Assembly (NCBI GenBank): GCA_008632985.1
Contig: QPGO01000026.1
Coordinates: forward strand, 1 to 64,000
Source: Psammoneis japonica
Taxonomy: Eukaryota
Reading direction: 5' to 3'
DNA length: 64,000 nt
A program made the position numbers and the translations under genes. Shown here piece after piece: positions 27,939-58,514 of the stretch (positions within the stretch are counted from its first letter, which is position 1; each line of letters begins with the position of its first letter). Below the pieces are notes generated by a model. It saw nothing but the letters and a program-made list of their open reading frames with translations. It was not told the DNA's origin and searched no databases.

Positions 27939-28426
27939 CCCTTCAACCACCGGACTTGAGCAAATCTCCACGGGTGGAGATTTGCTCGCTTACGTCACAA
28001 ATATAGCACATTCAGATATGAATAATATTTTATTTGCGCGATTTTGTTTTGGAACGCGCATTCGCCGAAAATCTGAGGGAACCCTTTTGTAATTTAGAAA
28101 GTTTAATGTCGACTTTTAACACCGAGTTTTTTGCAAGCTTCATCTATGAATAGAGAGGAACTAAATATCAGCCTTTAACAATGAGGGTTATCATGAATTA
28201 CTATCACAAATAGAGCAATAATACCACACCCTTGGAGCAAATCTCCACCGGTGGAGATTTGCTCCCGATAAGTAAATGCACCTGGTATACTTTACGTAGA
28301 TTGTACGCGACATGACGTTTTTATACTATTGTATGTTCATTACATTGTTATAAAAATGCATGACACGTCACAAATCCACAAGTAGAGCAAATCTCCACCC
28401 GTGGAGCTCCCCTGGTGGTTGAAGGG
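27939..28426. mobile_element. piggyBac-like MITE with internal palindromes
   Basis: TIR CCCTTCAACCACC / GGTGGTTGAAGGG; TTAG on the left (27935-27938) and TTAA on the right (28427-28430); palindromes at 27958-27987, 28234-28265 and a partial one at ~28385-28410; TpA-rich interior. Confidence 0.82.
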
Positions 28427-28504
28427 TTAAACCAGCCAAGAAGGTCATTGCAGCTGGAAAAAAAAACACCGGCACCCTGAAGACAGCACAACCTGCACTC
28501 AACG

Positions 28505-29846: not shown

Positions 29847-30085
29847 TGTTGCAACCCATCCTTCTGGTGGCTGTTCCAGAGCCACCTCAGTCCTCCAAGG
29901 TCTGATCCTGAGGCCAAAATGGACAAGCTTGTTGTCACAATGCTTTCCAAGAGTTAAAAGAGAACAGTGGCTGCTTCCATCGGCTGTTTTTGTTGCTTCA
30001 CGTGGAGCACATGAGTGCTGACGCATGCGTCTTCTTCACACCATTTAATTTTGGTGTTTGAACTTTTAGCTCACCATTTCCAACA
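29847..30085 (-). repeat. LTR A (3' LTR)
   Basis: TGTTG...CAACA; minus-strand PPT-like cagcaggagtg adjacent. Confidence 0.92.
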
Positions 30086-35260: not shown

Positions 35261-35498
35261 TGTTGCAATTTGTCCTTCTGGTGACAGTTCCAGAGCCACC
35301 TCAGTCCTCCAAGGTCTGATCCTGAGGCCAAAATAGACAAGCTTGTTGTCACAATGCTTTCTAAGAGTCAAAAGAGAATGATGACTGCTTCCATCGGCAG
35401 TTTCAGTGCCTCACGCAGAGCACATGAGCGCTGGTGCGTGCGTCTTCTTCGCGCTGTCTAATTTCGGTGTTTGAACTTTTAGCTCGCCATTTCCAACA
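35261..35498 (-). repeat. LTR B (shared central LTR)
   Basis: Aligns with LTR A and C; PPT of copy B on one side, leader of copy A on the other. Confidence 0.92.
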
Positions 35499-38400: not shown

Positions 38401-40669
38401 GTCTTCTAGTGCACCCCCAATGGGCCTGAATTCGTTGTCGCAACGAATGCGTGTGACCTTCAAATCGGCCTTGTTGCAGACTCGCAGCACATCTTCCAGA
38501 GCTTCTTGATGAGTTGGTTGGGTCAAGTCCTTGAGCGGTTGTGCCGTGCAATAAAAAATGTTTCGTGACACTGTGGTGAGGAATGGCAACAAATTCACCT
38601 TGAGGCCGTCCAGGCAAAGAGTGACCTTGTGCTGTGCTGCAATGAGCTCCTTCGGGATCTCCACGCAGTCTTCTACAACTGGCTCCAGCTTCTGCCTTGT
38701 GACCTTGCCTTTTAGACTTCCAATGTCTGGTCCAAAAATCTTCTTGGCCAAATCTACATCCTCCGTTGTGACGGGATTGTTCTTGATGCTGTTCACGCGA
38801 ATGATGGCCTTCAGATCGTTCACGGCTGGGTTTCCCAACACGTGCAACAACTCCCCAGCCCTCTTGGCTTTCTCAAACTGTCGTGGAGTGTAGAACTTCT
38901 TGTTCTCTTCCACACTCTGCACAAATTGGAGCTGAGTTCCAGTGTCATTTATCTTGGGCTTGTAAATGGGCAGCCCTTTTCCATCCTCCTCGAACCCAAC
39001 CTTCTTGTTGGGGAGATGGACGGTGAATGCGCTGTCTTGCTTAGAATCACTTGTGATTCTGTGTTTCTTCTTCATGTCAGAGAAAGCAAAAATGTTGGTG
39101 ATTGCATCTGGGTTGAACCAAGTCTCACCAAACCCAGGCACTGTGGCCTTGTGTGTCATGACTGGGACTCCGCCATTGGTGTGCAAACGCATGGCTTCAT
39201 CCGATGGACAGACGTCTGCAACGAGCTTCTCGTTGCAGAAGATTGTGGTTGTGGACTGGTTGTCCAATAAAATCCAGTCTCTCATGCTGCCAGATTGATC
39301 CTGGCAGAGAGATGCATCGATGTGTGTGCCAGCCCATCCTGAAACAGCAGATTTTGTTCCAGTGGAGTCTTTGGCAGAAGAGTTGGCTCTGCACTGGCAT
39401 TGTCACTCGCCTGAGCGTTGCTTGCTTCTTGCTTAGCCTTGGCCTTGTTGTTGGCCCATTCTGCTTGAGGTTTTCCTTGCCTTTCCCAGCACTTGTTGGA
39501 ATTGTGTCCGGCCTTGCCACAGCAGCAACACTTGCCTTCTAACTGAGTGAAGGACAGCGTGATTTCTTGGTTTTCTTCTTCTTTCTTGGAGCCAGAGTTG
39601 TTGTTTTGATTGTTCCTGTTACGGTGGTTGTCAGGCTGACCAACGCAGTCAAAAGTGTGGTTGCTCAACACCGTGTTGGCTTCCACAATGGACTTGGTGC
39701 ATTGGTTGTTCTTGAGGGACTGCTGAGTGTTCAATCCTGTTAGAATTGATCTGCACTTCCGCTGGTCTGCGTTCTCCAAGTGCATGTAACCCATCAATTG
39801 GCTGAATGCCTTTTCTTGACACTTCTTGACAGAATCCGCATTGTGCTCATCGCATTCTGACATGCCTTGCACTGCCTTGGTGAGGATGATTGGTCCTCCA
39901 ATGTGAGACTTCATGATGTCCCTTGCAACCCTGAATCTCTTGGTGCAATCTTGAAGACTCTCCTTCTCCTTCTGCTTGGTTTCCAGCACCGCTCTCATTG
40001 AATCTGAGATGATGGCCATGTCACACCTGTGCTCTTGGCAGTTCAATGCATGCTCCTTAATGGCCTTGGGCAATTTGACAGGATCGTTTTCAATTTTGGT
40101 TTGGAACTCGGTTCTTGCTTGAATCTTGTTCTTCATGGCCTTGGAGCATCTCTCCCAGAGCAAAGCATGAGCCTTGATGAGGTTGTTCTCATGAGTTTGG
40201 GTCCTCTCAATGTGAGCATCAAATTCTGTCTTGAACTCAATTTCGTGCTGTTTGTTCAATGGCACGTCCACCTTGTCATCTCCAGTTGAGCTGTGACCTG
40301 CAAAGTCGGCTTCTTAGAACTCATGTCACATGGAGTGCAAGTGTTGAGTGCAGTTGCAATGTCATTTCCAAACTCACAAGTCTTCTTAATGCAGTCGATG
40401 ATGAACTCAGTGGCAATCTGAAAATCAGATGCTTGCTTGGCATTTCCAACACAGCAGACACAATCATTGATGCCCTTGTGGCTTTGCTTGCCACTCTTGT
40501 TTCCCCTTCCTAAGGGTCCTCTTCCTTGGCTTCTGTTGCCAGTTCCACCTCTGCCTCTTCCACTCATGACAAAAAGGCAAAGCAGCAAAATGTCTCACAC
40601 ACTGTGAGAATGACTCTTTTCTTTCTTGCTTTCTTTTCACAGCTCTCAGCTGGATTGTTCTCTTTTGGC
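35499..40669 (-). pseudogene. copia gag-pol copy B, frameshifted
   Basis: ORFs 40256-40588, 39282-40271, 37702-39285, 35950-37692, 35411-36043; 11-nt duplication (gacatgactgc) near 36040-36060 shifts frame. Confidence 0.92.
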
Positions 40670-40907
40670 TGTTGCAATTTGTCCTTCTGGTGACAGTTCC
40701 AGAGCCACCTCAGTCCTCTAAGGTCTGATCCTGAGGCTAAAATAGACAAGCTTGTTGTCACAATACTTTCTAAGAGTTTAAAGAGAACAATGACTACTTC
40801 CATTGGCAGTTTCAGTGCCTCACGTAGAGCACATGAGCGCTGACGCATGCGTCTTCTTCACGCTATCTAATTTCGGTGTTTGAACTTTTAATTCACCATT
40901 TCCAACA
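40670..40907 (-). repeat. LTR C (5' LTR)
   Basis: TGTTG...CAACA; retains more TpA than LTR A or B. Confidence 0.92.
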
Positions 40908-42689
40908 CCTTTGCTCCTTTGCTGTTGGAAGAAGGGTTGGACGAATGACTGCCACTTTTCGTGGTCTTTTTCTTGTTGCTTGGTGGCAGGTTGCACCTCC
41001 CACGACCAAGTCACTGTTGGCCTTGTTGGAGCCACCAGCGCCGCTTTTCCTGCGCGGCATGGACCTGGCCTTCTTGGTGGACAACTTGCCAACTGAGTTC
41101 TTTGCAGCAGTCTTCATTGTGGAGGTGTTGAAAGTGATGCCGTGCAACTTGTGAGATTTTCCAGCACCGCTCTTGGCAATGAATTTCTTGTGAGCAGCGG
41201 CAGCGACAGCAGCAATTTGCATGATTTGCAGGTGGGTCTGCTGGGTTCACCCCTGGCCTCACAGTCTTCCTCTTGGTGGCACCCTGAGCAGCACAGGAGG
41301 GTCAAGCTTGCAATTGACAGTGGGAGAGACAAGGGGCAGAGACACCGGCACACTTCATGATGTGCAGCCACCACTTCTTGCATTGCGCGCTGCAGAGGAC
41401 AGTGGGTTGCCGATTGCAGCATGCATGCCAGTTGTTGCAAAAGGACCCAGTTGTCATTGCACAACAGCCAAGCACAGAACAACCAACAAAGTGAGTGAGA
41501 TTTGCACAGTCTTGTGACATTGGCTCAAAATGATGATGGAATTCCGCAAGCATGCATTTCATGTGTGGGGCCAACACAAGTGCACCTCCACTGGGTTTGA
41601 GAGGTGCCTTTGCTTTGCAAAAAGAAAAACATGAGCCTGTCATGAAGGCTTCCCCAGAAACAGCAGGGCTCTTGTGCAGCTGCTTCCTGAAGCCAAAGAA
41701 CCTGATCACCTCCAAGCAAATCTTTGTCTGGAGTGTGGGTTCTGTCTTTAGCAAGTGACTGGTCCAAAGTGTGAAAGAGAGTGCCTCTCAGCAATCCACG
41801 AGTGCAGCTTGCTTGCAGACAAGGAAAACAACACAATGCCAAACAAGCACAAGACACTTGGCAGAAATGCAAGTGCAGGGGCTGACTTTAGGGCCAAGAA
41901 CACAGTGCCAAACAAGCACAAGACACTTGGTGGCAAAACAAGCACAGGGGTTGACTTTGAGACCAAACAGCAGTGCAGTGTGTGCGCAGCCAAAAAGATG
42001 TGTGTTTCCATCATCTGCACTGTGCTTGAGTGCACAGCAGGCCTGCACAGAAGGGGGCAAGCAAAGTGACTCAACACAATGAATCATGGTCCTGTGGAGA
42101 TGGTGCTGGGGCAGCATGCAAGCACAAGTCTTTTTGGTTCAATGCAAGCAGGTGTTGACAGCAGCAGCAAACATCATGTGAGAAAACAGCAACATTCAGA
42201 AAACAACCCTGACATCACACCCAACAACTTCAACTTGGGCTCCAAATGAATCACACACAAGGCACATGATGGTCAGACCCATCATCTCAATGAAAGAGCT
42301 CTCATCTGGATGGCGGCACATCGGACGACAAACTTTGGCAAGAGTGCTGGTGCTGGCCAGCACCCTGTCCATCACAATGATGCAATGTTCCAAACAGAGC
42401 TGTTGGAAATTGGCTCATTGCATCATTGGAAGAGTTGCTGCACAGAGTCAAGGTGCAAAAATGGAGCTTGGAAAGGTCCTTGATGCACCAAGCAGTGATT
42501 TTGCAGTGGGGTTACAGCACAAAAGGAGCCAAGGCAGGACATCAACACCTTGTGCTCACCAGGTGTGTGGATGATTGGGATGTGGGCAAGCACAAGATGT
42601 TGGCTCAGTCACCTGAGCTGCTGCTTGTGGTGGCAATCTGAGAACCTCTCAGAAAGAGGAATGCCAGAGCAGTGCACCAAGACACCATT

Positions 42690-44620
42690 CAATGGAGCAG
42701 CACTGTGAGAAAGCCCAAGGGGGGGCAGTCAGGCACATCTCTGACCACACAAAAGGTGAAGTGCTTGCACCAGATGATGTTGATGAAAAGACCAAGGACA
42801 CCATGTTTGAGGCACTTCAGATTAAACATCTGAGTCAGAGGATTCCAGAGGAAGATCATTTTCACAAGTTTGGTGAGCTGCCCAAACTCCAAGTTGTCGC
42901 CATTGCCAACAGCACCATCAAGACTGTCATGCAAAGACTGTTGGGGAGTGCAGGCCTCAGCAGATCTGATTTTAGCACAGCATCACAGCGGCTTTTCCAC
43001 CACTGTGGAAAGGCCAGCAGAGTGCTTTGAGAAGTGTTGTGCATGTTCACGAGCTTGCTGGCAAACAAATCACCCCCATGGGCCACTTGCCACACACTCA
43101 TGGCAAAGCAACTCACTGCACCAGACAAAAATCCAGGTGTCTGTCTGGTCAACATGGGGGAGGTGTGGCAGCAAGCCGTGGCTGAAGCTGGCTTGATTCA
43201 TGCTGTGAATGTGCTCTGGGGGCAACACAAATTTGAGGATGTCTTTGGATTTCTTTTTGTTGATGCTCCAACAGATTCGATGAAGAGAGTGGGGCCCCAA
43301 TGTTGTGCAATGTTGGGCACCTTTGGCCATCTGGCACTGGGCTCACCTTCAAGAATTGTTGCAAGCATTGGAGCACCCCAATCATCCGAGGACACTTTGG
43401 CAACACCTTTGTGCCATTCAGCAAAGAAGGTGTTACACAGGGCAGTGGCAGCCCCCACTTGGTGCAGCAGCTCATGGACTGAGATGATTTCATCCACTGG
43501 TTTGAGAGATGAGCAAGCATTTCAAAGATGTGCTCACCTCATCTTGGCACACTGACAACTCCACTGCAGCAGGAAAATTTAATGCCCTGCCTGATTTTTT
43601 CTTGATTCTCCAGGCTGAAGGCCCCAAGCATGGGTGCTGCACAGCCAACAGCTCCAAGAACAGCATCTCCTCAGCAGCCCCAAAATGCAACCTGGAAAAT
43701 GCCAGGGTGCACTTTGGGGACCTCGGCTTTGCTGTCAAATCTGGCGGGAGATGGATGATGTGCACATGGCGGCTGGCTGGCACAAGCTGAGTTGTGGACC
43801 TCGGTCATCCAAGGACTCACCAAGGTTGCAGCCCACCACCCCCAGGCAGAAGTCTCTGCAACACCAGTGGCAGCATGTCCACTGCACAGCTGAGGACTGT
43901 GGAGAATCACCAGTGGATGAAGCAGAGCGTGGCACAGCACAAATTTCTTCCAGCGCCAATCAGCAAGACTTTGGTGGTGGATGACAACCCAAGACCAGCC
44001 CCATCTGCCTTTCCAACAAAATTCTTGGGACTCACCATCCCTTGTGCAATGGAGTCTGTGGCTCAAAACTGCAAAGTGAGCACTCTCATGTGCTCACACA
44101 TGACCGACTCACTTCACGGGGCCGCTCCCCCAGCTCTCTTCTGCAGTCCACAAGGACACCATGTGCAAAGTGAACCAAGAAATGGCTGAAAGGAAAGTCA
44201 AAGTGCGTGAGGAGACCCTTGAAATGATCCTCAGGACTCTGCCTTGCCTCAAGGCCAGAGCTGTCAAGCGCAGAACCAAAGCTGGAGCACGGCTGCCTGC
44301 ACGCCCATCGACGCTGAATGGCGCAGAACTCTCAAGCCAAGAGCTCCATGATGCACTCTGTTTGCAGCATGGCAGCACTCCACCAGACCTCCCTGAGCAT
44401 TGTGATGGGTGCGGCCACAAATTCTCCATCAGCCACGCCTTTCAGTGCAAGAAGGGTGGCCCAGAGTCATCTCACGACATGATGAAGTGTGTGACAACCT
44501 TGGCGACCCAATTGGAAAGGCTTGCAAGCCTTCCTGCACATGTGACAAACCTCTGGTCAACCCTCCTGTTGGTCACATCTTGGGAAGCCCAGGCAACTGT
44601 GACAGCTCCTCAGGCAACAC
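42690..44620 (+). mobile_element. decayed non-LTR retrotransposon (RT plus Cys/His motif; CRE/R2-group-like)
   Basis: Fragments across frames: LTAPDKNPGVCLVNMGEVW, GFLFVDA, KEGVTQG, WHTDN (cf. WYADD), GPKHGC (cf. GPxYGY), KFLGLTIP, LNGAELSSQELHDALCLQHG..CDGCG..HAFQCKKGG..SRHDEV. Confidence 0.75.
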
Positions 44621-44959
44621 AAACACCAACAAGTCCAAGGATGGCGAACGTGAGATCTTCTTGCCATGAGATTTTGGGATGGAAGGACAGACAACATGGT
44701 GACGGATGTTTGCACGCACGCACTCATGCAGTCTTCGCTCACATTCGTTCCAGATGTGGATGCGAAAAAGCGCAAGCTCTGTGCTTTTCTCAAGCCGAAG
44801 CCCTTGTTGCAAAGCAGTGCTGTGATGGTCAAATGACGCTGACAGACAACACCGGCAGACACAACTGGCATTGCCTGAAACAACAACATTGATCCCACAC
44901 ATTTGTTCCAACGTCGTTTCAAGAATTGCTGCAAAATGTTCGATCCCTGTACGACACGA

Positions 44960-45361
44960 TGTGAGAACATGCATGTGTTCATGTGTCAGCATGCCATCAA
45001 GTCCTGCGTGTGACAACGACCGCTCAGAAACCGCCATCAACCACCATCAACGACTCACCCAATCACAGCTCGAGAAACGAATGAGATCGGAGGTCTTGGG
45101 TTCAAATCGAGAATTGAGCCTCACTTCTTCTTTTCTTTTATGCAATCAAGAACTTCTTGTTCCTGCCAAGTCTTTTCACTGCATTCATCTGTGTTGAGTT
45201 CGGCACAAATGCGGGTCACTTCTCGTTCTTTACAAACTCTTGTTGGTTGTTGAGTGGAGCAGTTTTTGTTCCCACAATTTAGCGGCTGGTCAATTCGCAC
45301 CTCCTGAGTTGTCTGTTGTTGCTGTTTCTGTCTCTGCGGCATAAACTGCCACATGCCCACA
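44960..45361 (+). repeat. 5' LTR (heavily TpA-converted)
   Basis: Aligns to 51414-51802; differences are dominated by TA versus TG/CA. Confidence 0.95.
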
Positions 45362-45450
45362 TGCTTCCTCTGCGCTGTGGAGACCTGACTCAGTTCAAAA
45401 TTGTTGCAGAAACCAGAGCCCAACATCATGGACGCCGAAACGACGACATC

Positions 45451-48400
45451 ATGAACGCCAAACAGATTGCAGCCGTGATTGCTGCAGCCATTCCCGCCGC
45501 CATCCAACCTCTTGTCAATGCCCAGAACAACCCTCCAGCTGGCAACTTCACTTGCTCACCAGCCTCAGCACGTGATGCACTGCTTGACTGCAGTCACCGA
45601 GGCGATGCCAACGCATTCAAGACATCCACTGAACCTCTTCCAACCACGTTCAACACCCAGAAGCCTGACATCCGAGCATTGCTCGATGAACTTCGTACAA
45701 GGTCCAAAGCTTTTGGTTGGAACGACATCCCAACGATCAACGTCAATGAGGGAGTGGCTGACGCCACCGCTGAAAACCGGAACATGCTCACATCCTGCGG
45801 AAACATCACACCGGAACAGATCCGCACGGTGTCCGCTGCTTGCACAAACAGGCAGAATCGTGAAACCCAGAACAACTGTCAGCTGTGCCTGTGCCTTCAC
45901 AACTTGGTGGATGAAGCCACCAAGCAAGTCATGGCCAATGAATCCAAGCAGCACTGCATTGGAGACATGGATTGCAGGGCATTGCACCTCAAAATCCTGC
46001 TCTCGAAGGCCGAGATTGATGCTCGCGCTGCAGCCTCCCATGTCCGCTCCGAGCTCGCATCCCTGGACAAGCACATGGTCGATGCAGCCAACCACGATGT
46101 CAAGGCATTCAACGAGCACGTGAGGGACCGGATCAAATCCCCATCAAGCTGAGGAGAAATGTCCAACGATCTCATCACGAACCCATTTGAGGGACATGCA
46201 GCGTGCACGGACAAGAACTTCACAAAGTGCACGGAGAAAATCAACGACGACTGCGATGATGGAGTCGACATTGCCCGTGAGCAACTCATGATTTGCGCTG
46301 AGAAGAAATGTCAAGCCCTCGTCCTCAACGAAAAGTGGAACGAACCAACCGAGGAACAAGCGCAAATTGTCGCTCTTTGCGCCAAAGTGAACGACCTCCG
46401 GAACCAACGCTCGCGCAAGTCACCCCAGACGCGTTCCAGCCCTAGGTGGGAGCTCGTAGTGCTGACGTGTGACACAAATAATTTTTATCATCCGTGGTAT
46501 GTTTTGCACGTACATTTCGACGTGTGATATTTAATAAAAATTGTCCAGACTCGCTGTTTTGCGAAGCCCCAGACGTTTTACATAACGAATTTATAGAAAC
46601 AATAATGCGCCAGTTACATTCTTCAATGTCTGAAGAATGTAACTGGCTAAGTAAAAAATGATGTACTTCAAAATTGCCTCATTTTCTGTTGGCGAACATT
46701 GACATTTAATTACCGTATAATTTTACTACGGAGCTCGCACGTAGAATTCTACGGGCCCAATGTCACACGGATTCCCACCTACGTCTGGAACGCGTCCCCA
46801 GCGGTCATCGGGCCAGAAACCTTCCAACGCCAGCCAGGCCAAGAAGTCCTCAAGCGCCACCAAATGCAAGAAAGGTGAAAAACCAAAATTTGAAGGAAAA
46901 TGGACTTGGCGCGGCGTCGAACCTCAGCCCGGAGAACCCAAAGTGAAGACCTTTGAGGGAGAAGAATGGAAGTGTTGCGACTTCCACAAGCACTGGGGAC
47001 AGCACTTGAGCAAGGACTGTCATGCCAAACAGAAAGCTGACAACTGGAACTCCGGCAACCCGAACCAGCCGACGTCCGACGCTCTCACCGCTTCCATGGC
47101 AAACATCGGCATCAACGACATGACTGGACAGGCCCAAGGCGAGTGAAGGTGGTGGTCAGGTTTGGAGATGATCTGTGCCACACTGCTTGTTGCACTGTTT
47201 GCGATCTTGGCTTGCACTGATGAAGTTGTGGACACCATTCTGATGAAAGCAATTCCCATCGCAGCCAACGTGATCAGCAGTGCATGTGATCCATTGCACT
47301 CCTTGTCTGACTTAGCCAAGCCCTTCCACGTCAGCCTAAATCCCAAGCCAAGAGTCCGAAGACCTCAGAGTCGGTGCAAGCGAGGCTCCACTTGCCGCCG
47401 CCGACATGTCCGACGCAAACGTGGAGCACGTGTCATGCACAAAGTCGTCGAGGTCCATGTGACCTGTGAACCAGTCATCGGATGCTCCTCCACCACCGAT
47501 GCAGAATGGTGCTCAACCTGCAACAACCACAGCTGTGACGCCAACTCGTTCCTCATTGGCATCGATGACCACGCCTCCCACTGTCTGACCAACTCGATGT
47601 CGGACTTCATCCGGACACCAGCAAAGGTCCACGTCAACGTCAAGGGTGTGTCCGGCAACGCATCGACCTCACACAAAGGAACTGTTTGTTGGCCCATCCA
47701 AGACAACCTCGGACAAACACACAACTTGAATGCACCTGGCGTCTGTTGTGCACCCAACCTCCCGATCCGGCTCCTGTCTCCGCAACATCTGGCTCAAGCT
47801 CTCAAGCCACAAGAGCACACCCAGGAAGGCACTCGTGCTACAACCACGAGCAACCACACTGTCTTAGAGTGGATGGACCGAAAACACACGCGGTTGGTCC
47901 CCCTCAACAAAAGCAATGTTGGTGTCTTTTGCTCCGCCCCTTCTTTTACGTCCCTTCAGGCGTCATGCGAAACATGCGACTGTCGTCGTGACGAAAACTT
48001 TTGTGCATTCCGAGCACACCTCATTCCGCCCGACGATGACACACCCGATGCCACTGTTGCTCACAATCATGCTCCTCCGCCCGACGGGGTCTCGGATCAT
48101 GCCAAGCAACCCACTGTTCCGACTCACACTCCGGTTGACGAAGCACCCGACGATGCAACTAGCCCGAACGAGAAAGCCATCCATGCGGATCAATCAACAC
48201 CTCCGTCCAACCCCAATGCAGTCGAATTCAACCCATCAGAGGACGGATCAGAGGGTGAACAATTCATCAAAAATGAAGAAATCATCACGCCTGCGAATCC
48301 ATCCCACGAACTGCTGCTTTGGCACTGTCGACTCGGTCATCTCCCATTTTCGCGCATGCAAGCTGTGGCTTGCAGTGGAGACCTGCCTCGTCGTCTGTCA

Positions 48401-51386
48401 ACGTGCCATGTCCCTCAATGTGCTGCCTGTCGATTCGGAAAAGCGACAAAAGCACCTTGGAAAGTCAAAGGGGACAACAAACAAAACAAAACATTCAAAG
48501 CCACTGAGCCTGGTCAGTGCGTGTCGGTGGACCAACTTGACGCAACAACACCAGGTCCAACAGGCCAATTGAAAGGCTGGGCAACAACAAAACGCTGCAG
48601 ATGCGCTGCTCTGTTCGTTGACCACTGCAGTGACTTCTCTTTTGTCCATTTGCAAACAACTTTGACTGGAGCTGAGACGGCAGCAGCGAAGCGCGCGTTT
48701 GAAGCATGCTCCCGATCACTCGGAGTTCACATTTGTCACTGCCATGCCGACAATGGCCGTTTCGCAGACAATGCACACCTCAAGGTGGCAAAGGATGCAA
48801 ACCAAACGACATCCTTTTGCGGAGTCAATGCACACTTTCAAAACGGCATCTGCGAGAAAAGAATCTGCGACCTCCAAGATTCAGCTCGCACACAACTCAT
48901 GCATGCCAAGCATCGATGGCCAGCAGCAGCAGAGGTGGCTCTGTGGCCCAGCACCATTCGATGCGCGAACACTGTGTGCAACTGTGTGCCGAGAATTGGT
49001 CAGCAAGTGTCGCCGATCGAACTTTTCTCAAAAGCACCAGCGAAACCCAAAATTTGGCACTTTCATCCGTTCGCCTGCCCAGCCCACATTTTAAACAGCA
49101 AACTGCAAGCCAACAACACTGCACCCAAAAGTGGGACCCTCGCTCTTGAGTTGGTCCACACCTTGGGCCATCACCAAGACACTCTCGTCAGTTGCTCCGG
49201 TTCCAAATCTCGCCACGGGGATGGTCTCACCACAATGTCACGCGAGGTTTGACAATTCATTCAAAATGCTCAAATCCCAATGCACGACTGAGTCCCGCTG
49301 GCAGCAGATCTGCCACTTCCTCCAAGACTCAAAACTTCAACCACGAATCACCAAGAAGACCGGAACGGCGGCACGCGTCAAGACCACGTGAGCCACGTCA
49401 AATGCACACCATGGTGCCAAACCCGCCAAAATGCCTGTGGAGGCAACCGCACCGGATGAATTGGCAGAAGATGAAGAAGATGCGCCAAATGCAACAAATG
49501 AGGGAGCCTCTGAGACCCCAGAATCACTGCCAGAATCCGAAGCACCTGAACCAGAGCCTCCACCAGCAGCACGAATGACGTGGTCTGGACGCACTGTTCA
49601 GCCAATGCAGGGCATGATCGAGTCAGAACTGCAACGGCAGGCCAATGTTGTCTCGCACAGAGCCAACTTCGAAGTGCTGGACCAAGACATGCACTCAGAA
49701 CAAGATTTTCAGGCAGATCTTGACAATCCTGTCGCTTGCTCCTTGAAGGCCTCTGCTGATCCGGGTGCCATGTGCATGCACAAAGCTGTGAAGCAGCCAG
49801 ATGCAGAGCAGTTCAAAGAGGCCATGGTGAAGGAAATTCAAGACCACACTGCTCGTGATCACTGGGAACCATGCGAGAAATCTGATGCACCCAACGATGA
49901 GACGATCCTGCCAGCAGTGTGGTCAATGAAGCGCAAGCGCCAAATTCACACACGAGAAGTCTACAAGTGGAAGAGTCGACTTAATCTTGGCGGGCACAAG
50001 CAGATTCCCGGAAAGCACTGTGACCAGACTTGTGCACCAGCTTTGTCCTGGACAACGATCCGTCTGTTTCTGCATCCATGTGTCATGCATGGATGGCATT
50101 CAAGACAAGTTGATTTCGTCCTTGCGCATCCACAAGCGGACATTCCATGACCAACCTTCATGGAGCTGCCCCAGGGAGTGACATTTCCTGGCATTGATTG
50201 CAACAAATTTTGTCTCTGCATTAAGAAGAACATGTGCGGCGGACATGACAGTGGACGAACCTGGCACAAACATCTCCGTGCCGGTTTAATGCAACTCGGT
50301 TTTGTTCCATCGGAGTTCGATGAATGCATCTTCTACAGAGGAACCACAGTCCTCCTGGTCTACACAGATGATTGTCTTGTGTTTGACAAAGAGTCTGCTG
50401 CAAACATTGACAAGGTCATCAAGTTGATGCAAACCACATTCGATGTGGAGGACGAAGGAACCATTGACAAATGCCTCGGAGTCAAGATTCAGAGGGAGAA
50501 AAATCGACATCACTTGGCCCAGCCTCACCTTGTCAATGGCATTCTTGTCAATCTCGGACTTGTCAATGAGAATGGAACACCAAAGAAAGTGGTGACCACC
50601 AGGGAGCTTCCAGCCCTCTCCACCAGGCTCATTGGGCCTGACTTTGACGGCGAACCTTTTGACTGTGATTTCGACTGCCGATCGGTTGTGGGCAAAGTCA
50701 ACTTCCTTGAGAAGTCTGCTTGCCCGGATGTCACGTACACGACTCACCAACTGGCTTGCTTCACAGCCAATCCAAAGAAGTCCCATGGCGTGGCCCTCAA
50801 GCACCTCGGTCGGCACTTGTTGCTGACTCGTGACAAGGGCTGCTGCACTCAAATTCCTCCAGATGGCACCAAGAGCTTTGAGTGCTACGTGGATGCCAAC
50901 TTCTGTGGCAACTGGGACAAAACAATTGCGGCGGAGGACCCCAACATGGCAAAGTCTTGCAGCGGCTATGTCGTTGAGCATGGAGGGGCTCCTCTCTGCT
51001 GGCCATCCAAGCTGCAGACTCAGTTTGCTCTCAGCAGCAGTGAGAGTGAATGCTTGGCCTTGTCGGCTGCCACCAGGCATGCAAAAGCATCTGTGCATCT
51101 CCTTGAGGAGGTGAACGAGAAGTTTTGCCCTGTGGCAACCACACCAACAGTCTGCTGCAAATCATTCAAGGACAACTCGGCAGCACTTGAGACTGCAAAA
51201 GTGCCCAAGATGCGTCCAAGAACACGTCATGTCAACAATGTCTGTCACCACTTCCGCTCTGAAGTCGCCAACGGACATCTCCTGATTGAAGCCATTGGGA
51301 CCAAACTCCAACAAGCTGACTTCCTGACGAAAATGCCAGACCTAGCGACGTTCATTCGCCATCGTCTCTCGGTTCAGGGATGGTAA
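45451..51386 (+). pseudogene. gag-pol, interrupted by TGA stops, frameshifts and a MITE
   Basis: ORFs 45316-46152, 46159-, 46760-47146, 47162-49252, 49431-50150, 50160-51386. Confidence 0.9.
46428..46796. mobile_element. MITE inserted in gag, ~24-bp TIR, 4-bp TSD CCCA
   Basis: GACGCGTTCCAGcccTAGGTGGGA / TCCCACCTAcgtCTGGAACGCGTC; CCCA at 46424-46427 and 46797-46800; perfect 17-bp hairpin 46609-46647; TpA-rich. Confidence 0.92.
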
Positions 51387-51413
51387 CAACTCGGACATTT
51401 CGGTGTGAAGGAG

Positions 51414-51802
51414 TGTGAGAATATACATATATTCATGTATCAGTGTGCCATCAAGTCCTACGTGTGACAATGACCGCTCAGAAACCGCCATCAACCACCA
51501 TCAACGACTCACCCAATCACAGCTCGAGAAACGAATGAGATCGGAGGTCTTGGGTTCAAATCGAGAATTGAGCCTCACTTCTTCTTTTCTTTTATGCAAT
51601 CAAGAACTTCTCGTTCCTGCTAAGTCTTTTCACTACGTTCTCGGTACAAATACGGGTCACTTCTCGTTCTTTACAAATTCTTGTTGGTTGTCGAGTAGAG
51701 TAGTTTTTGTTCTCACAATTTAGCGACTGGTCAATTCGTACCTCCTAAGTTGTCTATTGTTACTATTTCTATCTCTACGGCGTAAACTACCGTATACCCA
51801 CA
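51414..51802 (+). repeat. 3' LTR (TpA largely retained)
   Basis: tgtgagaatatacatatattc...actaccgtatacccaca. Confidence 0.95.
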
Positions 51803-53446
51803 CACGACGCAAGAGCGACTAACGGCATGGGTGAAATTGGTGCAAGATTAATGCACCAGAACCAAGGATCGAGTAGCACTATCCAAACCAAAGGTCCATC
51901 GACTGCGACAACAAACAAGGTGAAGAATACACCGAGGCAATAAGAAGGCCATTTTGCTACAGAAAGGAGTCATAGACTAACTGCTCTTTCATTCTTTGAA
52001 TCTCAAGCAAGCTACAGGCAGTCATCTTGTTGGTGCCAGGAATCGCATCACTTGATTCAAGACACGGGGAATTGAATCACTGCTTCGATATCAACGAACA
52101 ACTGAGAAATACTTATCGAGAGCATACAAGACAAAGCTGATTACAGTGGAAGAATATTCCAAGGCGGATTGGTTTGATGAGAACGGGTACTCGCAAACAG
52201 CACGTGATGAAGTGTAGGGGAGATTTGTCAATCCGTGGAATTCTGTCGCTACCAATGGTCACCATTCACTCGGTACCTTCCTTTCGTAAAGATTGGATCG
52301 ACTCGTTACAAAAACAAGGAGATACATGATTTGGGCGAATCTACAACTCGTACTCTGAACAACAGAGATTTGGATGCGGTGTTTGCTCCACGCGCTTCAA
52401 AAAGCAATCCCGATGCAATCAAGTTGACGGGACATTCCTCTTGTGTGCTTGGTGGAAATGGCCCATGGTGGCGATATTACAATAAATGAACGGATCCGCA
52501 TATTTCATAGTATGCCTTTCTCCGTTTGACTTTGACCGAAACGAGTAGTGGACGCGCCGTACTGGCATCATGGCAAACCGTTTATGTCTGCGCCATGTGT
52601 CACCATCAGTAGGCCCTAAACGACAATGGTGGGAGTCAACTATATTTCCAAAAAAGTTAACTCGTCCCTGTTGCAAAGGAAACAAGACCTTTACAAAGAA
52701 CAAGAAGCTGGTACTCTTTAAAATCACATGTGTGCTCCGGCGCAGCATTGGTGTATAGTCGCACAACACCGCAGGATGTCGAAATAATGTACAAGGCTGT
52801 GGTGCTCATTTTTTGTGATGGAGTACTACAATCAAGAAGAAGAGCTCCACCATCGTTTCTACTTTGGTGAATTTTGCTTGGGTCATTTGATTTGGCTGCC
52901 ATTCGTAAGCTATAAGACTATTGCTTGTTGATTTGGCTCTTGGTTCTGTGATGTCCATATGCACCACGGTGGTTCATGGCCGATAGCCATGCATCCCAAA
53001 GGAAGCTCTCCGGATATACAAGGATGAGCAATGCAAGAAATCTGTTGCGATACATTTGGGGCACGTTTGACTTGGCGGATGATAATATACAAGAAACTCC
53101 GTTGTTGCTACAGGAAGCGTTTCGATAGATTTTGTTGTTTTGCGTCATGAGACATCGGTGGAATCCAATCCAGATGAACATCATGAGTGTCCAAGCAGGA
53201 GAGAAGAATTTGTGAATGACGGCGAGATTCAGCTACTAGAGTAGACTCCAATGAAGAAAGTTCGTACTCCAATGACGGTGAACGGCAAGGGGTCACACTG
53301 GCTTAACAAAAATGCTACTTGATAATGTCTCTGCTAGGTCTACAAGGATCATTTTGTAGAATAAGAAAAGCCATCATGAGTTTGGGACGAAACACAAACA
53401 GTAATGCAATGTAAACCACCCGTTCAAAGATCGCTCATGCTGAGAT

Positions 53447-56400
53447 CTAAGTATCAAACAAAGCGCTTCTGTTTGCATCTTCTATTTCGCCGTCTTGCTG
53501 AACATCTGGCTCCAAGAATGTACATTCGAATGTGCCATACGCCATTGCTATCTCGTCGGAGAACATCTCCAATACTGCAGGTTTGCAATGAAGCTGAAAC
53601 CTGTACTCCAACCCGTTGGCCTCGAACCAGTGCTTGACGCTCTTGACCTTGTGATTATTGTGATAAATTTTGATGTCGTGGCCTTTTTCCCAGATCTTTT
53701 CTTTGGTATCAGGGACTGTTCCGATTCGCAATATCCTGTTGCCGACAACAAAGAAACCTTTTTTGTCGGGAACGAGTGCCTCGTGAGGTCGTACAGCTTT
53801 GTTCTTGCTGCTGAATCCAGAAATACTGTCACTAGAACGTAGAAGAATGTTCTCGATCAACTGCCATGCTTCAGAGAAAGACAGCACGCGTTCCATAAGA
53901 AACATTTTGTACCCCACCTCTTCGAACTGTCGATTCACTTGATCAACGTGCCTTTCTAAGCGTACCCGCAATGGTTCATCTTTATCCATCCGTGAACCCT
54001 GCAATGAGTGTGAGCGTAAACTTGTCTTCTTCGAAATGAGAGTTTGTTGTAGCCCGCCACCTCCACTGCCGATGTCTACTTCATCATCAGGAATCAATTT
54101 CTCCAGTCGTTTGATGACTTGTGTTTTACGTTTGTTCTCAGACTCTAGAAGCTTAACTCGCGAACGAAGCTTCTCGAACTCAGACAATTTTGCAGCTTCC
54201 TCCGAACTGCTACAATGCTGTTCAACGGGCGGCTCTGATGCCACTTCCTTGCAATGGCAAGCTTGTTTATCGGAATGGGTAACCATTTGTATTTTAGATG
54301 ATTTGCTTGATTGTAAATGAACACCGACATATTCCAAACACGAACCCTTTGCAATAACACCAAGGCATTCCAAGACGAATGCTGCCTTTTCGTCTTCATC
54401 AGCTTGTTTCAAATCATTGTATCTGTCGCGATCTTCTTCCCACAGTTGAAGGACGCCGATCGTAATAGTGTGAAGGTCATCAATCACCTTGAGACCGATT
54501 GGATCCAGTTCTTCCAAGGAAATCAGGTGAACCTTTCGAAGATGGCAAGACGCTACCTTCGTTAATGGCTCAAGGATTGACGCCTTTAACTTTTGAATAA
54601 TCGACGCATTGTCCTTGTCCACACCAATCTCGAAGTCAGAAAAGTTATCCATAACGCATATTTTCTTCGCAATGCGTCGATAGGCCAGCATGTACCCATC
54701 CCGGCTGTTGCCATTGAAAAAATCTTGAAATATCCAGAGAAAATTCTTTTGTTTTCTTTTCAGTGAATAGGAGTACAACGAGATGATGATAGACGCACAA
54801 CCCAAGAATGGGACGTTGCTTACTTCGAGACCCTTGCCGACAACATTGAGGACTGCAGCGATTGTTCCCTGGAGCTTTGAAGACAAGGCAACAGTCACTG
54901 TGCCGCTGGAAATGACTTCAGCTGCTAGATAGGTCCGTTGAAACGACTGACAAAAGGCAAAGAAGTAAGCCTGGATGTGCTTTGGCATTGCTTCTAGCTC
55001 CTCGGGAAGACCTTGTACGGATTCTAGCGATCGATCAAAATCCTGAATATTTGAGGTGAGCTTCTGTAATGCATTGTACTGTTCTGGGGTAAGCCGTTCC
55101 ACATCCAAACGTCGCTTCAGCTCGATGAGTTCACTCGTAGACTTTGAGGTGAGTTTCTGCAATGCATTGCACTGTTCGGGGGTGAGCCGTTCCACGTCCA
55201 AACGTCCCTTCAGTTCCATGAGTTCGTTTGCAGACTCGACGCCTGCCTCACCAACCTTGAGCATCTGCAGCCGAGCCTCCAAAGATGCAATTTGCTTCTC
55301 TAGATCGGTTGCTGAAGCCCACTGAGGCAAGCTCTGAAGAGGAACAAGGGCCTCGTATTCCGCTTTGGCGCGCGCAGCAGCAGACGTTACATCAGGATCT
55401 GTCGCACCTCTGGCCGCCTCAATAAAGTCTTGCAATCGTTGCATTTCTTGATCTAGAGCAACCCTTGCTTGGAACTTCTCAGCACAATCCTTTCGAAACT
55501 GCTCTTGTTTGCTCTCTTCTTGTTTCCTTTGCTCTTCTGCAAGTCGATGTTTCTCCACCGCTTCCCTTTCAAACCGCATTCTTTCTGCCTCTTGCTCTTG
55601 TTGCCTTTGCTCTTCTGCTTTCTGTTCTTCAAGCTCTTCTACAACTTGATCTCTCTCAGCCGCTTCCCTTTCAAGCCGCATTCTTTCCGCCTCTTGCTCT
55701 TGTTGCCTTTGCTTTTCTGCTTTCTGTTCTTCACGCTCTTCTGCAACTTGATCTCTCTCCTCTGCTTCCCTTTCAAGCCGCATTCTTTCCACCTCTTGCT
55801 CTTTTTGCCTCTGCTCCTCTGCTTTCTGTTCTTCAAGCCGCAAGCGTGCTGCCTCCTCTTCGCGACGCCGCTGCTCCATTGCTTCCTGCTCTAATCGTTT
55901 TCGTTCCAACTCCTTTTCTTGCCGCGATCGCTCTAACGCCAGCTCTTCCAGCCGCAATCGTTCTGCCTCTTGCTCACGACGCTCTTTTAATTTTCCAGCC
56001 TCTTCTTCTGCCTTGTTGCTTGTGCTGGTTTTCTGTGGGGAAGCCTGAGGCGCTGGTGATCTCTTGATGGGGAAACCTGCAACTCCTTGTTGCTGCGCTT
56101 TTAAAATCGAAACTACTTGGGAATGACCTTTTTGTTTGGCCATGTCTAGCGCACTCTGCTTGTGAGAGTAGCCTGCTTTAAGATTGGCATCAGCTCCATG
56201 ATCCAAGAGAAGCTGGACGACCTCACCATGTCCATTCTTGGATGCAGCCATGAGAGGCGTCTTTCCTCCTTTACATCTGGCATTTATTTTGGCGCCGTGA
56301 TCCACCAAGAGTTTTGCGGCTTCCACTTGTCCTTGTTGACTGGCATGGTAGAGCGCGGTGGAGCCATCACTGTCGACTGCATCCACATTTGTGACATCGT

Positions 56401-57363
56401 CGAGAAGTCTCACCAGTTCCCATTGACCATTGCGAGCAGCATGCCGCAAACTCTTTTCTATCTTGCGTTCCGGCGGTAAAATTAAAAAGCCCAACGTGTG
56501 CTTTTCTGCACTACCTTGTCGCCCTCGTTTCGCCTCGAAAATCCTTTCTGTGTTGCGTTGTTGCTTGAGTCGTTCTCCTTTCCCCTCGACTTCTGCAAAA
56601 AAGAGGCATAAATGAAAAGGTTATGTGAGAAACGCACACAGGTATTCCGGCGGTATAACAAAAAACGCAACGTGTGCTTTTCTGCTTTACCTTGTCGCCC
56701 TCGTTTCGCCTCATAAATCCTTCCTGCGTTACGTTGTTGCTTGAGTCGTTCTCGTTTCGCCTCGACTTCTGCAAGAAAGAGACAAAAATGAGGTCATGTG
56801 AGAAACGCTCACTGGCATTCCGGCGGTAATACCAAAGAACGCAATGTGTGCGTTTCTGCATTACCTTGTCGCTTGAGCAGTTCTTGTTTTCGTTTCGCCT
56901 CGACTTCTGCAAGAAAAGAGACATGAATGAAAAGGACATGTAAGAAACGCACACTGGCATTCCAGCGGTAAAACCAACGTGTGCTTTTAGTCATTACCTT
57001 GTCGCTTGAGCAGTTCTTGTTTTCGCAGTTCTTGTTTTCGTTTCGTTGCCACTTGTTTGTTCTTGTTGCGTTCCACCAATGTCCGAATTTCGCTTTTCAA
57101 AATATTGGAAATGCCCGTGTTGGAATCCAAGTCCAAGCGCGTCAAATTCCTGTTGTATTTTTGCAGTGTTCGCTTCAATGCTCTTGCTCCGTCGTCACGA
57201 ATTCGGTTGGAATTAAGGTTGAGCCATTCCAATGTGGTGTTGGTTTCGAGTGACGTTGCAAGCGCTCTTGCACCGGCATCACCAATTTCGTTGTGATGAA
57301 GACTGAGCGTTGTCAATGTGGGATCATTTTCCGGAGACGGCGGCAGGCTTCATCGAGTCTCAT
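53447..57363 (-). CDS. LRR (RI/NLRC3-like) + duplicated micro-exons + ankyrin repeats + charged coiled coil + unknown C-terminal domain; apparent 1-nt frameshift near the start
   Basis: Exons ~57363-56998 (LSLHHNEIGDAGARALA), 56906-56865, 56768-56691, 56592-56515, 56457-53447 (GSTALYHAS, GKTPLMAAS ankyrin motifs); phase-1 GT-AG introns; the last acceptor is inferred from frame. Confidence 0.75.
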
Positions 57364-58117: not shown

Positions 58118-58514
58118 GACTCGTTCCAGCCCTGGGTGTGAGCTCATGGCACTGACGTGTGATGCAATTGTTTTTTGTCATCCGTCGCATGTTTGGCGCA
58201 CACATTTCTGCATGCAGTCATCCAAAAAATGTTCCAGACTCGCTGTTTTGCAAAACCCCAGACGTTTTATTTAACAAATTTATGAAAACAACAATGCACC
58301 AGGTGCATGCTTCAATGTCTGAAGAGCGCACCTGGCTCAGCAAAACATGATGTGCTTCAATCATGGGCAAGTTTGTGCACTCGCAAAACTGCCTCATTTT
58401 CTGTTGGCGATCATTGGCATGTGTTCATTGCTCGCCAATTTCACTGCGGAGCTTGTGCTTGGAATTCTGCAGGCCCAATGTCACACAGATTCCCACCCAC
58501 ACCTGGAATGCATT
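58118..58514. mobile_element. older TpA-converted relative of the 46428-46796 MITE, 4-bp TSD CCTG
   Basis: Colinear with 46428-46796 (gactcgttccagccctgggtg...attcccacccacacctggaatgcatt); CCTG at 58114-58117 and 58515-58518. Confidence 0.85.

Follow-up and report, generated by a model that had tools for sequence, protein, structure and literature searches.

Unequal TpA erasure in the two LTRs of a single Ty1/copia insertion in Psammoneis japonica

How can the two LTRs of one retrotransposon, identical when the element inserted, come to differ so that one is nearly stripped of TpA steps and the other is not? This question is raised by positions 44960-51802 of the 64,000-nt stretch of Psammoneis japonica contig QPGO01000026.1 analyzed here (hereafter the window). 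The LTR pair and the target-site duplication (TSD), read from the window, identify this interval as a single Ty1/copia insertion: the letters CACGA stand on the left at 44955-44959 and again on the right at 51803-51807, supporting the claim of a preliminary description of this DNA that the LTRs began as identical copies. On the plus strand, the element comprises a 5′ LTR of 402 nt (44960-45361), an internal gag-pol region (45362-51413), and a 3′ LTR of 389 nt (51414-51802). Both LTRs have TG...CA termini, which, together with the 5-bp TSD and an RVT_2 reverse transcriptase (RT) preceded by integrase, place the element in Ty1/copia. The Pfam match to gag_pre-integrs falls within 47147-49252 and those to RVT_2 within 49392-51386, with one frameshift in the 49252-49392 interval and one in-frame stop codon at 50148-50150, and a purine-rich tract, GAAGGAG, directly adjoins the 3′ LTR. 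Protein searches found homologues of the internal region that are at most 62% identical, the named matches being from Nitzschia inconspicua, and in both the 'longer' and the 'near' length ranges returned no closer paralogue protein (>62% identity).

Alignment of the LTR pair revealed 33 mismatches, every one a transition (33/33), plus one 13-nt gap. At 22 sites, TA in the 3′ LTR corresponds to TG (16 sites) or CA (6 sites) in the 5′ LTR, and the reverse arrangement was found at 0 sites, a 22:0 split (binomial p = 4.8e-7). The 5′ LTR holds 4 TA, 39 TG, and 40 CA (TA observed/expected, 0.14), compared to 26 TA (observed/expected, 0.80) and 19 CG in the 3′ LTR. Five sites have CG in the 3′ LTR and TG or CA in the 5′ LTR, and one has CG in the 5′ LTR and TG in the 3′ LTR. 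A CA/TG site at 44990-44991 accounts for two mismatch positions; it had been described previously (as cagTG versus cagCA) as two changes on an ancestral TA, but this is not established, as CpG decay occurred in both LTRs and an ancestral CG is equally possible. CpG loss is also asymmetric, with 5-6 losses in the 5′ LTR versus 1-2 in the 3′ LTR. At the 3 remaining mismatches, the 5′ LTR has G:C where the 3′ LTR has A:T, and 25 of the 33 differences can thus be read as A:T to G:C changes in the 5′ LTR, 22 at TpA and 3 elsewhere. The three pairs of LTR strings quoted in the preliminary description are all present as written, and its warning that LTR dating would mislead here is borne out, with an apparent divergence of 33/389 (8.5%) of which only 3 differences (≤0.8%) lie outside TA and CG steps. 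In paralogous contigs (80% likeness), none of the 40 difference rows listed, out of 2442, was decisive for the 22 sites or for the 13-nt indel.

TA versus TG/CA differences are directionless when taken alone, and TA observed/expected in the 3′ LTR (0.80) exceeds that of host DNA (0.4-0.6), as might be expected if the 5′ LTR were the original and the 3′ LTR had undergone RIP-like C to T change (CpA/TpG to TpA). The body of the element argues for the opposite polarity. Of 20 columns with Tyr in homologues, 10 read Cys in the element, 5 His, 1 Ser, and 4 Tyr, while conserved Cys was kept at 11/12 and conserved His at 22/23 positions. These Tyr to Cys/His replacements (15/20 columns) in contiguous DNA indicate that the direction is TA to TG/CA and that the 5′ LTR is the hypermutated copy, in agreement with the earlier account of one hypermutated and one nearly spared LTR; polarity at the LTR sites themselves is drawn from this adjoining body and from composition rather than from an aligned outgroup LTR copy. 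TA observed/expected is 0.02-0.07 in the element body and 0.02-0.15 across the erased blocks (copia, MITE, and RT remnant), where TG+CA stands at 1.5-1.9. RIP, known from Neurospora and other ascomycetes, is a mutational genome defense that ruins transposons through dinucleotide-specific transitions with sharp local limits. However, its C to T changes create TpA, raising TpA and lowering CpA/TpG, whereas here A to G changes destroy TpA, which is nearly absent from all repeat blocks with TG/CA in excess; and RIP mutates both copies of a duplication, whereas here two identical LTRs 6.4 kb apart are split 22:0. Reversed polarity would additionally require T to C change in the 3′ LTR at the five sites with CG there and TG/CA in the 5′ LTR, and it is at odds with the TA level of an unhit young MITE (0.89, described below), which resembles that of the 3′ LTR, and with three-state sites (TG, CA, and TA) among the three LTR copies of a second, tandem element. 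It is therefore largely refuted, and we give it almost no credence.

Decay of CpG accompanies the loss of TpA. Conserved Arg columns (n = 41) include 6 now reading Cys, 1 Trp, 1 Gln, and 1 His, and CG to TG/CA transitions of the kind seen in silenced repeats have accumulated in the same tracts, asymmetrically between the LTRs, as in CpG decay of methylated transposons, and methylation is a candidate driver here. Transposon methylation is described in diatoms (PMC9998398). CG observed/expected is 0.69-0.85 in the young element, where TA is 0.02-0.14, and falls to 0.24 in old blocks. CpG decay is much slower than TpA erasure and cannot produce the TA loss.

The LTR sequence is multi-copy in public-run contigs (depth of 950-1450 versus about 60-100 for single-copy DNA), and polishing errors arise in such sequence, raising the prospect that the letters of the 3′ LTR were taken from reads of an unmutated paralogue. 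However, a public-run contig covering 51773-53607 with 0 differences and at single-copy depth runs from the final 30 nt of the 3′ LTR, with 5 TA sites, into 1.8 kb of unique flanking DNA, indicating that the right end of this LTR is not an assembly artefact. Moreover, a like asymmetry occurs at an LTR of the tandem element in the same window. An assembly or polishing artefact is accordingly very hard to credit. The start of this contig exactly 30 nt before the LTR end would imply another genomic copy with a TA-bearing version.

The erased body also contains a MITE-like insertion of 367 nt (46429-46795) with terminal inverted repeats of about 22 nt and its own TSD, CCCCAG, at 46423-46428 and 46796-46801; deleting it with one TSD copy restores the gag frame (KSPQ/RSSGQKPSN). 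This MITE is not hypermutated, holding 28 TA (observed/expected, 0.89) compared to 0 in the stretches on either side. Its family is very abundant (depth bin of 89,329 versus about 60-100 in single-copy flank), and a hypermutated plus-strand copy with 3 TA lies at 58118-58511. At the 26 TA sites of the 46.4-kb MITE, the 58.1-kb copy reads TG at 11, CA at 8, and another state at 4, with TA kept at 3. In the one assembly and the contigs of a single sample that the analysis covered, retention of 28 TA in the nested MITE implies that erasure at the element tract has ceased, providing indirect evidence for on/off behavior of the process.

By hand count, TG and CA changes in the 5′ LTR are interleaved in 10 runs versus 9.7 expected, and strand-coordinated (kataegis-like) clustering was rejected because the number of runs is as expected. 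Among 81 polarized changes from four repeat sets, the base after the changed adenine is C in 36 cases and A in 9; for the opposite-strand adenine at the same 81 sites, it is C in 13 and A in 24 (Fisher p = 1.4e-4 and 0.006). Which strand is changed at a TpA thus follows the next base, with TAC favored and TAA avoided and without coordinated runs, pointing to a sequence-specific adenine deaminase on integrated duplex DNA. This context predicts 11.3 ± 2.1 TG changes in the LTR versus 16 observed, leaving a residual strand bias. The T-A-C preference is the one feature pointing to an ADAT2/TadA-like agent, which we regard as a candidate. Targeting coupled to the sense transcript of the element itself was also considered and rejected, as the U3 of the 5′ LTR is changed from its 9th base and the U3 of the 3′ LTR is unchanged.

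Under the standard model, RT mechanics can in principle yield unequal LTRs: an adenine deaminase acting on single-stranded RT intermediates would edit the minus-strand body and the plus-strand strong-stop DNA, from which the 5′ LTR alone is templated, with the quickly duplexed 3′ LTR escaping. The plus-strand A to G excess in the 5′ LTR (16:6) fits such a scheme. However, both strands are changed in the LTR (16 TG, 6 CA) as well as in the body (10 Cys, 5 His), while editing of cDNA is described as one-stranded (PMC4866542); the MITE copy bears the same signature at 19/26 TA sites with no cDNA stage; changes of the same type separated the tandem copies once they had been duplicated; and CpG loss is skewed toward the same LTR. 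The features of APOBEC/ADAR-type pre-integration editing, namely one affected strand, coordinated clusters, and spared DNA transposons, are not what is seen in the element and in the changed MITE copy. We consider editing before integration to be very unlikely. The interleaved changes on both strands, the changed MITE copy, and the independent TG/CA states of the tandem copies indicate that mutation most likely followed integration, as had been proposed.

We then consider where the erased tract ends. Its last demonstrable changes are a Tyr to Cys replacement at 51243-51245 and a CpG to CpA change at 51277. In the tail of the internal region (51278-51413), the TG+CA level is normal and TA is kept at 51343 and at 51384, the latter within the TAA stop codon of pol. 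A boundary before 51343 is favored over one at the LTR edge by a likelihood ratio of 6.5, and the tract edge probably lies upstream of the 3′ LTR, within about 51278-51413, a placement that depends on the two TA sites at 51343 and 51384. The outermost TAs of the 3′ LTR are at 51422 (8 nt from its left end) and 51795 (7 nt from its right end).

The flanks of the element are unlike each other. To the left lies a TpA-free remnant of an older retroelement, containing a plus-strand ORF for a C-terminal domain (44104-44892) with 1225 relatives at E ≤ 0.001. Only an exhaustive HMMER search identified these relatives; a word-indexed search with the 44104-44889 ORF found none, and Pfam gave no match for 10 ORFs in the left block (40.9-44.96 kb). 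RVT_1 is present upstream in 3/7 long relatives tested, with 2 above the Pfam cut-off. The ORF has 1 TA versus 46.8 expected and a depth of about 10x single-copy, and the left block shows TA and CG observed/expected of 0.03 and 0.24. To the right, 51808-56620 is single-copy and TpA-normal, with a depth of 70-110 over 51792-53252 and a minus-strand ankyrin-repeat ORF (53447-56620) matching Pfam Ank families. TA observed/expected is 0.60 in 51808-53446 and 0.40 in the ankyrin ORF, confirming that the spared LTR adjoins TpA-normal DNA. ARAGORN detected no tRNA gene in the 64-kb window that might serve as a barrier element. A scan of 51300-53500 for sigma-70 promoters and terminators gave fewer sites than shuffles, although such a bacterial model carries no meaning in a eukaryotic genome.

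The tract edge and the LTR border are no more than about 140 nt apart, as gene conversion or LTR-specific protection would also give. Hypermutation might have struck both LTRs, with ectopic gene conversion from an unmutated family member, chromosomal or cDNA, subsequently restoring the 3′ LTR and a short piece of the body, the very event that the preliminary description had named as its own refutation. Donors exist, given a family depth that is roughly ten-fold and the contig break at 51773, which implies a second TA-bearing LTR end; the neighboring tandem array shows inter-element recombination, and the lower CpG loss in the 3′ LTR equally fits a younger copy. On the other hand, the conversion tract would have to cover the LTR from end to end, stopping at most 7 nt from where homology ends, and a clustered divergence of 8.5% should hamper pairing. 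In addition, once TA/CG-type sites are set aside, the only differences between the LTRs are the 13-nt indel and 3 transitions, each of which can be read as A:T to G:C in the 5′ LTR. Restoration by conversion is thereby weakened, and we hold it to be rather unlikely. Two further recombination routes were rejected because each needs a crossover within 9 nt of an LTR end: a mutated one-LTR circle integrating into a solo LTR, and a nested insertion with subsequent LTR-LTR deletion.

A second element provides a comparison within the same window. This minus-strand tandem copia array (29847-40907) has the structure LTR-body-LTR-body-LTR, with 3 TA kept in LTR c1 (29847-30085), 4 in the internal LTR c2 (35261-35498), and 11 in the end copy c3 (40670-40907). 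The TAs of c3 are confined to the LTR (40719-40889), and the DNA on either side is TA-free. Between the sister LTRs c2 and c3 there are 17 transitions and 1 transversion; the internal copy lost 6/11 TA and the end copy 0, a second case in favor of a position effect. The two tandem bodies show 41 TG/CA-discordant sites and 26 TA-versus-TG/CA sites. The sparing of c3 amid TA-free DNA implies that gene proximity is not required, and the earlier suggestion that proximity to a gene causes sparing is not established; a simple 'next to euchromatin' rule likewise fails at c3. In each element, it is the LTR on the right that is spared and the end LTR on the left that is changed; with two cases, this may be chance.

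Sparing of c3 strictly within the LTR would also be expected if one end LTR were shielded regardless of its neighbors, for example by an active promoter or a factor-bound nucleosome-free patch, and the spared 3′ LTR does keep a TATA-like run, TATACATATAT, at 51421-51431, the 5′ LTR counterpart of which is CATGCATGTGT. However, both LTRs had the same promoter at the start, TA was probably kept upstream of the 3′ LTR as well (51343 and 51384), and sparing falls on the 3′ LTR of the plus-strand element but on the 5′ LTR of the minus-strand array, leaving no common anatomical rule. Intrinsic protection of this kind seems improbable to us.

On balance, we lean toward a single insertion subjected in place to time-limited, TpA-erasing hypermutation that stopped short of the 3′ LTR, with the edge set by location and not by sequence. 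From the observations above we infer deaminase chemistry, control of the edge by chromatin or position, and the following order of events. A Ty1/copia element would have integrated on the border of single-copy DNA, next to the 3′ end of an older retroelement remnant that had already lost its TpA. Once the element was in place, TpA to TpG or CpA (A:T to G:C) changes, most simply through adenine deamination on either strand of duplex DNA, would have rewritten in situ its 5′ LTR together with about 5.9 kb of its body, removing roughly 85% or more of the TA steps. Erasure would have halted within about 51278-51420, leaving the 3′ LTR, and perhaps the last 70-130 nt of the body, as inserted, and the tract edge would reflect the location of the DNA while the process was active rather than sequence identity. 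Since the MITE that presumably landed later in the erased body is unhit, the process appears to have been time-limited at this locus, and a slower decay of CpG to TpG/CpA also affects this tract. The unlike fates of initially identical LTRs indicate that homology alone does not decide, and to this extent the earlier emphasis on position holds; given the unhit MITE, however, 'position' may mean position during a past episode.

Several known deaminases share features with these changes. ADAR favors U before the edited A, and the tRNA-Arg context of TadA/ADAT2 is U33-A34-C35. TadA/ADAT2 and TadA-derived DNA base editors thus match the present changes in having T/U before the A and, in the favored case, C after it, as in the T-A-C context at the 81 changes, although natural TadA/ADAT acts on RNA loops and its activity on chromosomal duplex DNA is hypothetical. 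A 'YAC' context is given for a TadA-8e variant (PMC13109818). APOBEC3, through C to U change in retroviral and retrotransposon cDNA, and ADAR, on repeat dsRNA, also make transition clusters in retroelements, but are described as acting before integration, on one strand, and with DNA transposons spared (PMC4866542), whereas here both strands and a MITE copy are changed and the LTRs differ.

The closest parallel comes from mutation-accumulation lines of Bigelowiella natans, in which de novo TpA to TpG/CpA changes arose in integrated viral DNA in some lines only (Mettrop et al., bioRxiv 10.64898/2026.01.13.699255). According to this preprint, the targets are integrated NCLDV and virophage DNA, and an adenine deaminase (ADAT2/TadA-like) is proposed, not shown. 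As at the present element, with its A:T to G:C transitions at TpA sites in clustered tracts of mobile DNA, the changes described are almost only A to G/T to C at TpA, giving TpG/CpA, in clustered TpA-poor, CpA+TpG-rich windows local to foreign or mobile DNA, and activity in some lines only fits time-limited action here. Bigelowiella is a rhizarian alga, whereas the present host is a diatom-like stramenopile; there, mutation of viral insertions was followed in real time, whereas an LTR retrotransposon here holds a fossil record, with far deeper depletion (TA observed/expected of 0.02-0.07 versus a Rho of 0.45 in the Bigelowiella NCLDV region). The main text of the preprint, as distinct from its supplements and figures, does not contain the words 'diatom', 'context', 'flanking', or 'trinucleotide', and seems to cover neither the +1-base rule nor a tract edge lying within an element. 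At the level of literature listings, where absence is not proof, this preprint was the sole precedent for TpA hypermutation, with nothing for diatoms.

Targeted A:T to G:C hypermutation of invading DNA thus has one earlier description that we found, in an unrelated alga. The TSD-flanked LTR pair adds a built-in control, two identical sequences of the same age, and their 22:0 fates argue, for this element, against models triggered by homology (RIP-like) or acting at the cDNA stage (APOBEC-like) and point to location and time. The unhit nested MITE and the +1-base rule place two constraints on any candidate enzyme. In genomes of this kind, LTR divergence can give a valid date only with TpA and CpG sites masked, and dead elements can mislead gene callers with long stop-free ORFs because TAA and TAG are erased along with other TpA. 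Tentatively, the mutator could be a sequence-specific adenine deaminase, with a TadA/ADAT2-like preference for T-A-C over T-A-A, that is brought to integrated duplex DNA by chromatin position rather than homology, acts in short bursts on new DNA adjoining silenced repeats, and stops a few nucleosomes before the domain edge. If so, one end LTR would be systematically intact, the right-hand sparing in both elements may reflect the direction of replication or spreading, and TSD-flanked LTR pairs would record, across the genome and at base resolution, the places and times at which the system acts.

A single Ty1/copia retrotransposon on the plus strand spans 44960-51802 of the window. Its 5' LTR (44960-45361, plus strand, 402 nt) and 3' LTR (51414-51802, plus strand, 389 nt) each start with TG, end with CA and adjoin the CACGA target-site duplication, and they align with one 13-nt gap. 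All 33 aligned differences are transitions. At 22 sites, TA in the 3' LTR is replaced by TG (16) or CA (6) in the 5' LTR, and the opposite case is absent (22:0; binomial p = 4.8e-7), leaving 4 TA in the 5' LTR versus 26 in the 3' LTR (observed/expected 0.14 versus 0.80). Among the other differences, five sites have CG in the 3' LTR versus TG/CA in the 5' LTR and one the opposite, a CA/TG site at 44990-44991 accounts for two positions, and at three the 3' LTR has A:T and the 5' LTR G:C. The asymmetry claimed in the preliminary description, a hypermutated 5' LTR and a spared 3' LTR, therefore holds. TA observed/expected is 0.02-0.07 in the copia body and 0.03 in the block to its left (40908-44954), compared with 0.60 in the right flank and 0.40 in an ankyrin-repeat open reading frame (ORF) there. 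An assembly artefact is highly improbable as the source of this pattern: a contig from a public run, possibly of the same sample as the assembly, matches 51773-53607 with 0 differences at single-copy depth and runs from the 3' LTR's TA-bearing end into unique DNA. The spared LTR also carries a TATA-like run, TATACATATAT (51421-51431), where the matching positions of the 5' LTR (44967-44977) read CATGCATGTGT; judging from these two sequences, erasure of TpA would remove any TATA-type promoter element.

The copia body matches gag_pre-integrase and RVT_2, with the reverse transcriptase downstream of the integrase, and is damaged by a single frameshift (49252/49392) and a single in-frame stop (50148-50150). 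Among the database matches listed, the top relatives reach 62% identity; those that carry a name are all reverse transcriptases of the diatom Nitzschia inconspicua, 46% identical, from which we infer that the element is diatom-like. To establish the direction of change, the pol frames were aligned with 30 homologues (P0001-P0030 of 120 listed), and columns with at least 70% agreement were kept. At 20 conserved Tyr columns the element has Cys (10), His (5), Ser (1) or Tyr (4), and conserved Cys and His are unchanged in 11 of 12 and 22 of 23 columns, indicating that TAY became TGY or CAY and that the process destroys TpA. The reversed, RIP-like polarity is accordingly the least credible of the alternatives. 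At 41 conserved Arg columns the element has Cys at six and Trp, Gln and His at one each; these losses reflect a second process, CpG decay, slower than TpA erasure. Because CpG decay is seen in both LTRs, the TG/CA site of the pair could equally derive from an ancestral CG, which gives the same pattern, so the claimed derivation from TA does not follow. Two sites with all three states (TG, CA and TA) occur among c1 (29847-30085), c2 (35261-35498) and c3 (40670-40907), the LTR copies of a second copia array.

Several observations indicate that the mutation most probably took place after integration, as previously proposed, and on duplex DNA. TG-type and CA-type hits (changed TA sites) alternate along the 5' LTR (10 runs versus 9.7 expected, by manual count), and both types are present in the copia body. 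Editing of cDNA, according to PMC4866542, affects one strand only and spares DNA transposons. A MITE copy at 58118-58511 reads TG or CA at 19 of 26 positions where its unhit relative has TA. The second array is a minus-strand tandem (29847-40907; LTR-body-LTR-body-LTR, spacing 5.41 kb) whose outer ends have no matching target-site duplication (CCGAG versus CCTTT). Its two bodies are 95.4% identical, differing by 223 transitions and 15 transversions, and most erased TpA sites are common to both, but 41 sites are TG/CA-discordant and 26 have TA versus TG/CA; most erasure thus preceded the duplication, and some continued after it in the chromosome. Editing prior to integration is, given these interleaved two-strand hits, the erased MITE copy and the divergence of the array bodies, very improbable.

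We also examined the sequence context of 81 polarised hits, taking the unhit copy as ancestor, from the copia LTRs, the MITE pair, c3 versus c1/c2 and the two array bodies. The base 3' of the changed adenine is C in 36 of 81 hits and A in 9, compared with 13 and 24 for the opposite-strand adenine at the same sites (Fisher p = 1.4e-4 for C, 0.006 for A), and in direct competition for the next base C prevails over G 17-6, over T 7-1 and over A 8-2. Retained sites (n = 13) are mostly of TTA/TAA type, and residual TA in erased blocks across the window is enriched for TTAA, CTAA and CTAG, with ATAT absent, a rough comparison because its denominators come from different DNA. This +1-base preference is equivalent to a disfavoured G before T on the other strand, and the two readings are inseparable here. 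From context alone, 11.3 +/- 2.1 TG hits would be expected in the copia LTR; 16 are observed, and a slight strand bias is left over. The TadA substrate presents its adenine in a T-A-C context. A TadA-derived editor has this context as well (PMC13109818), and the match may serve as a lead.

To the left of the copia element lies a multi-copy, TA-free ORF (44104-44892) encoding the C-terminal domain of a retroelement that bears a reverse transcriptase (1225 relatives; RVT_1 in 3 of the 7 long relatives tested), whereas the right flank is single-copy, implying that the element inserted at the border of an existing erased island. After insertion, erasure covered 6.3 kb of new DNA and ended ~0.4-0.5 kb before unique DNA. 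Over its final 850 nt the left flank has a single TA, at 44950, in a favoured GTAC context and 9 nt away from the point of insertion; it may mark the former border. In the ankyrin-repeat ORF (53447-56620, minus strand), to the right of the element, tandem repeats with units of 93 and 102 nt (55050-55838 and 56468-57025) are in frame and encode a charged, coiled-coil-like stretch. The final demonstrable hits in the tract are a Tyr->Cys change at 51243-51245 and a CpG->CpA change at 51277, where nine paralogous contigs have G. Upstream of the 3' LTR, TA sites 51343 and 51384 are retained and the TG+CA level over 51278-51413 is normal, and a two-rate comparison weakly prefers a tract edge before 51343 to an edge that coincides with the LTR border (6.5 to 1). 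The 22:0 split might also have arisen through gene conversion that renewed the 3' LTR, a reading that we regard as unlikely. Elsewhere, an imperfect palindrome (6624-7118; 495 nt, 78% self-complementary) sits exactly at a switch from erased to normal TpA at ~7.0 kb. A transposon-like unit at 14943-18516, with 276-nt inverted ends (95% complementary) and a 42-nt tandem repeat of ~26 units (15486-16583), is partially TpA-depleted, with 1-3 TA per 100 nt between 17.0 and 18.4 kb. Positions 19643-19755 are a 113-nt run of N.

Within the erased copia body, a 200-nt profile revealed a sharp TA-normal island that corresponds to a MITE-like insertion (46429-46795, 367 nt), whose inverted ends are ~22 nt long and which is flanked by a CCCCAG duplication. 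Its excision restores the gag frame. It keeps 28 TA, compared with 0 in the adjoining stretches on both sides. The family is very abundant, and a second copy is erased, so the family is not immune; either the MITE landed after erasure had ended at this locus, or its insertion is extremely recent.

The second array provides another spared LTR. TA is retained at 11 sites in c3, 3 in c1 and 4 in c2, and c3 has TA wherever any of the three does; these sites are confined within the LTR, the DNA on either side being TA-free. Although c2 and c3 are sister copies, with c1 the outlier, c2, internal to the array, has lost 6 of the 11 and c3, at its end, none, a second position effect, here without a TpA-normal neighbour. 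LTR-intrinsic protection, with which the confinement of the retained TA within c3 would fit, is, we believe, a little less likely even than gene conversion. The gene proximity invoked in the preliminary description is a possible cause for the copia element, but as a general rule is contradicted by c3. The right-hand LTR is spared in both elements (the 3' LTR of the plus-strand copia, the 5' LTR of the minus-strand array), but two cases are too few to show a rule. Compared with both c1 and c3, c2 has CG in place of CA at three sites and reads GGTGCGTG in place of GACGCATG. By parsimony the c2-specific changes are A->G at CpA and GpA, so that the mutator is not strictly TpA-limited and can create CpG. 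To the left of the array, very TA-rich patches (25000-26600 and 28100-28600; 8-9 TA per 100 nt, GC 0.39-0.43) directly adjoin erased DNA beginning at ~28.7 kb, and repeats at 28488-29452 are wholly TA-free.

Taken together, we lean towards hypermutation in place, tract-bounded and time-limited, with an edge set by location and not by sequence. The process matches the TpA-restricted hypermutation of integrated viral DNA described in the main text of a preprint on Bigelowiella natans (bioRxiv 10.64898/2026.01.13.699255), where it is active in some lines only, with which the unhit nested MITE agrees. The present system differs from that one in lineage and in depth, and what it hits is an LTR retrotransposon together with a MITE. 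The preprint's main text does not contain 'diatom', 'context', 'flanking' or 'trinucleotide', and a literature search found no report of TpA hypermutation in diatoms. What this locus contributes is a controlled 22:0 comparison, an unhit nested MITE, a second spared LTR that lacks a normal neighbour, and a +1-base rule.
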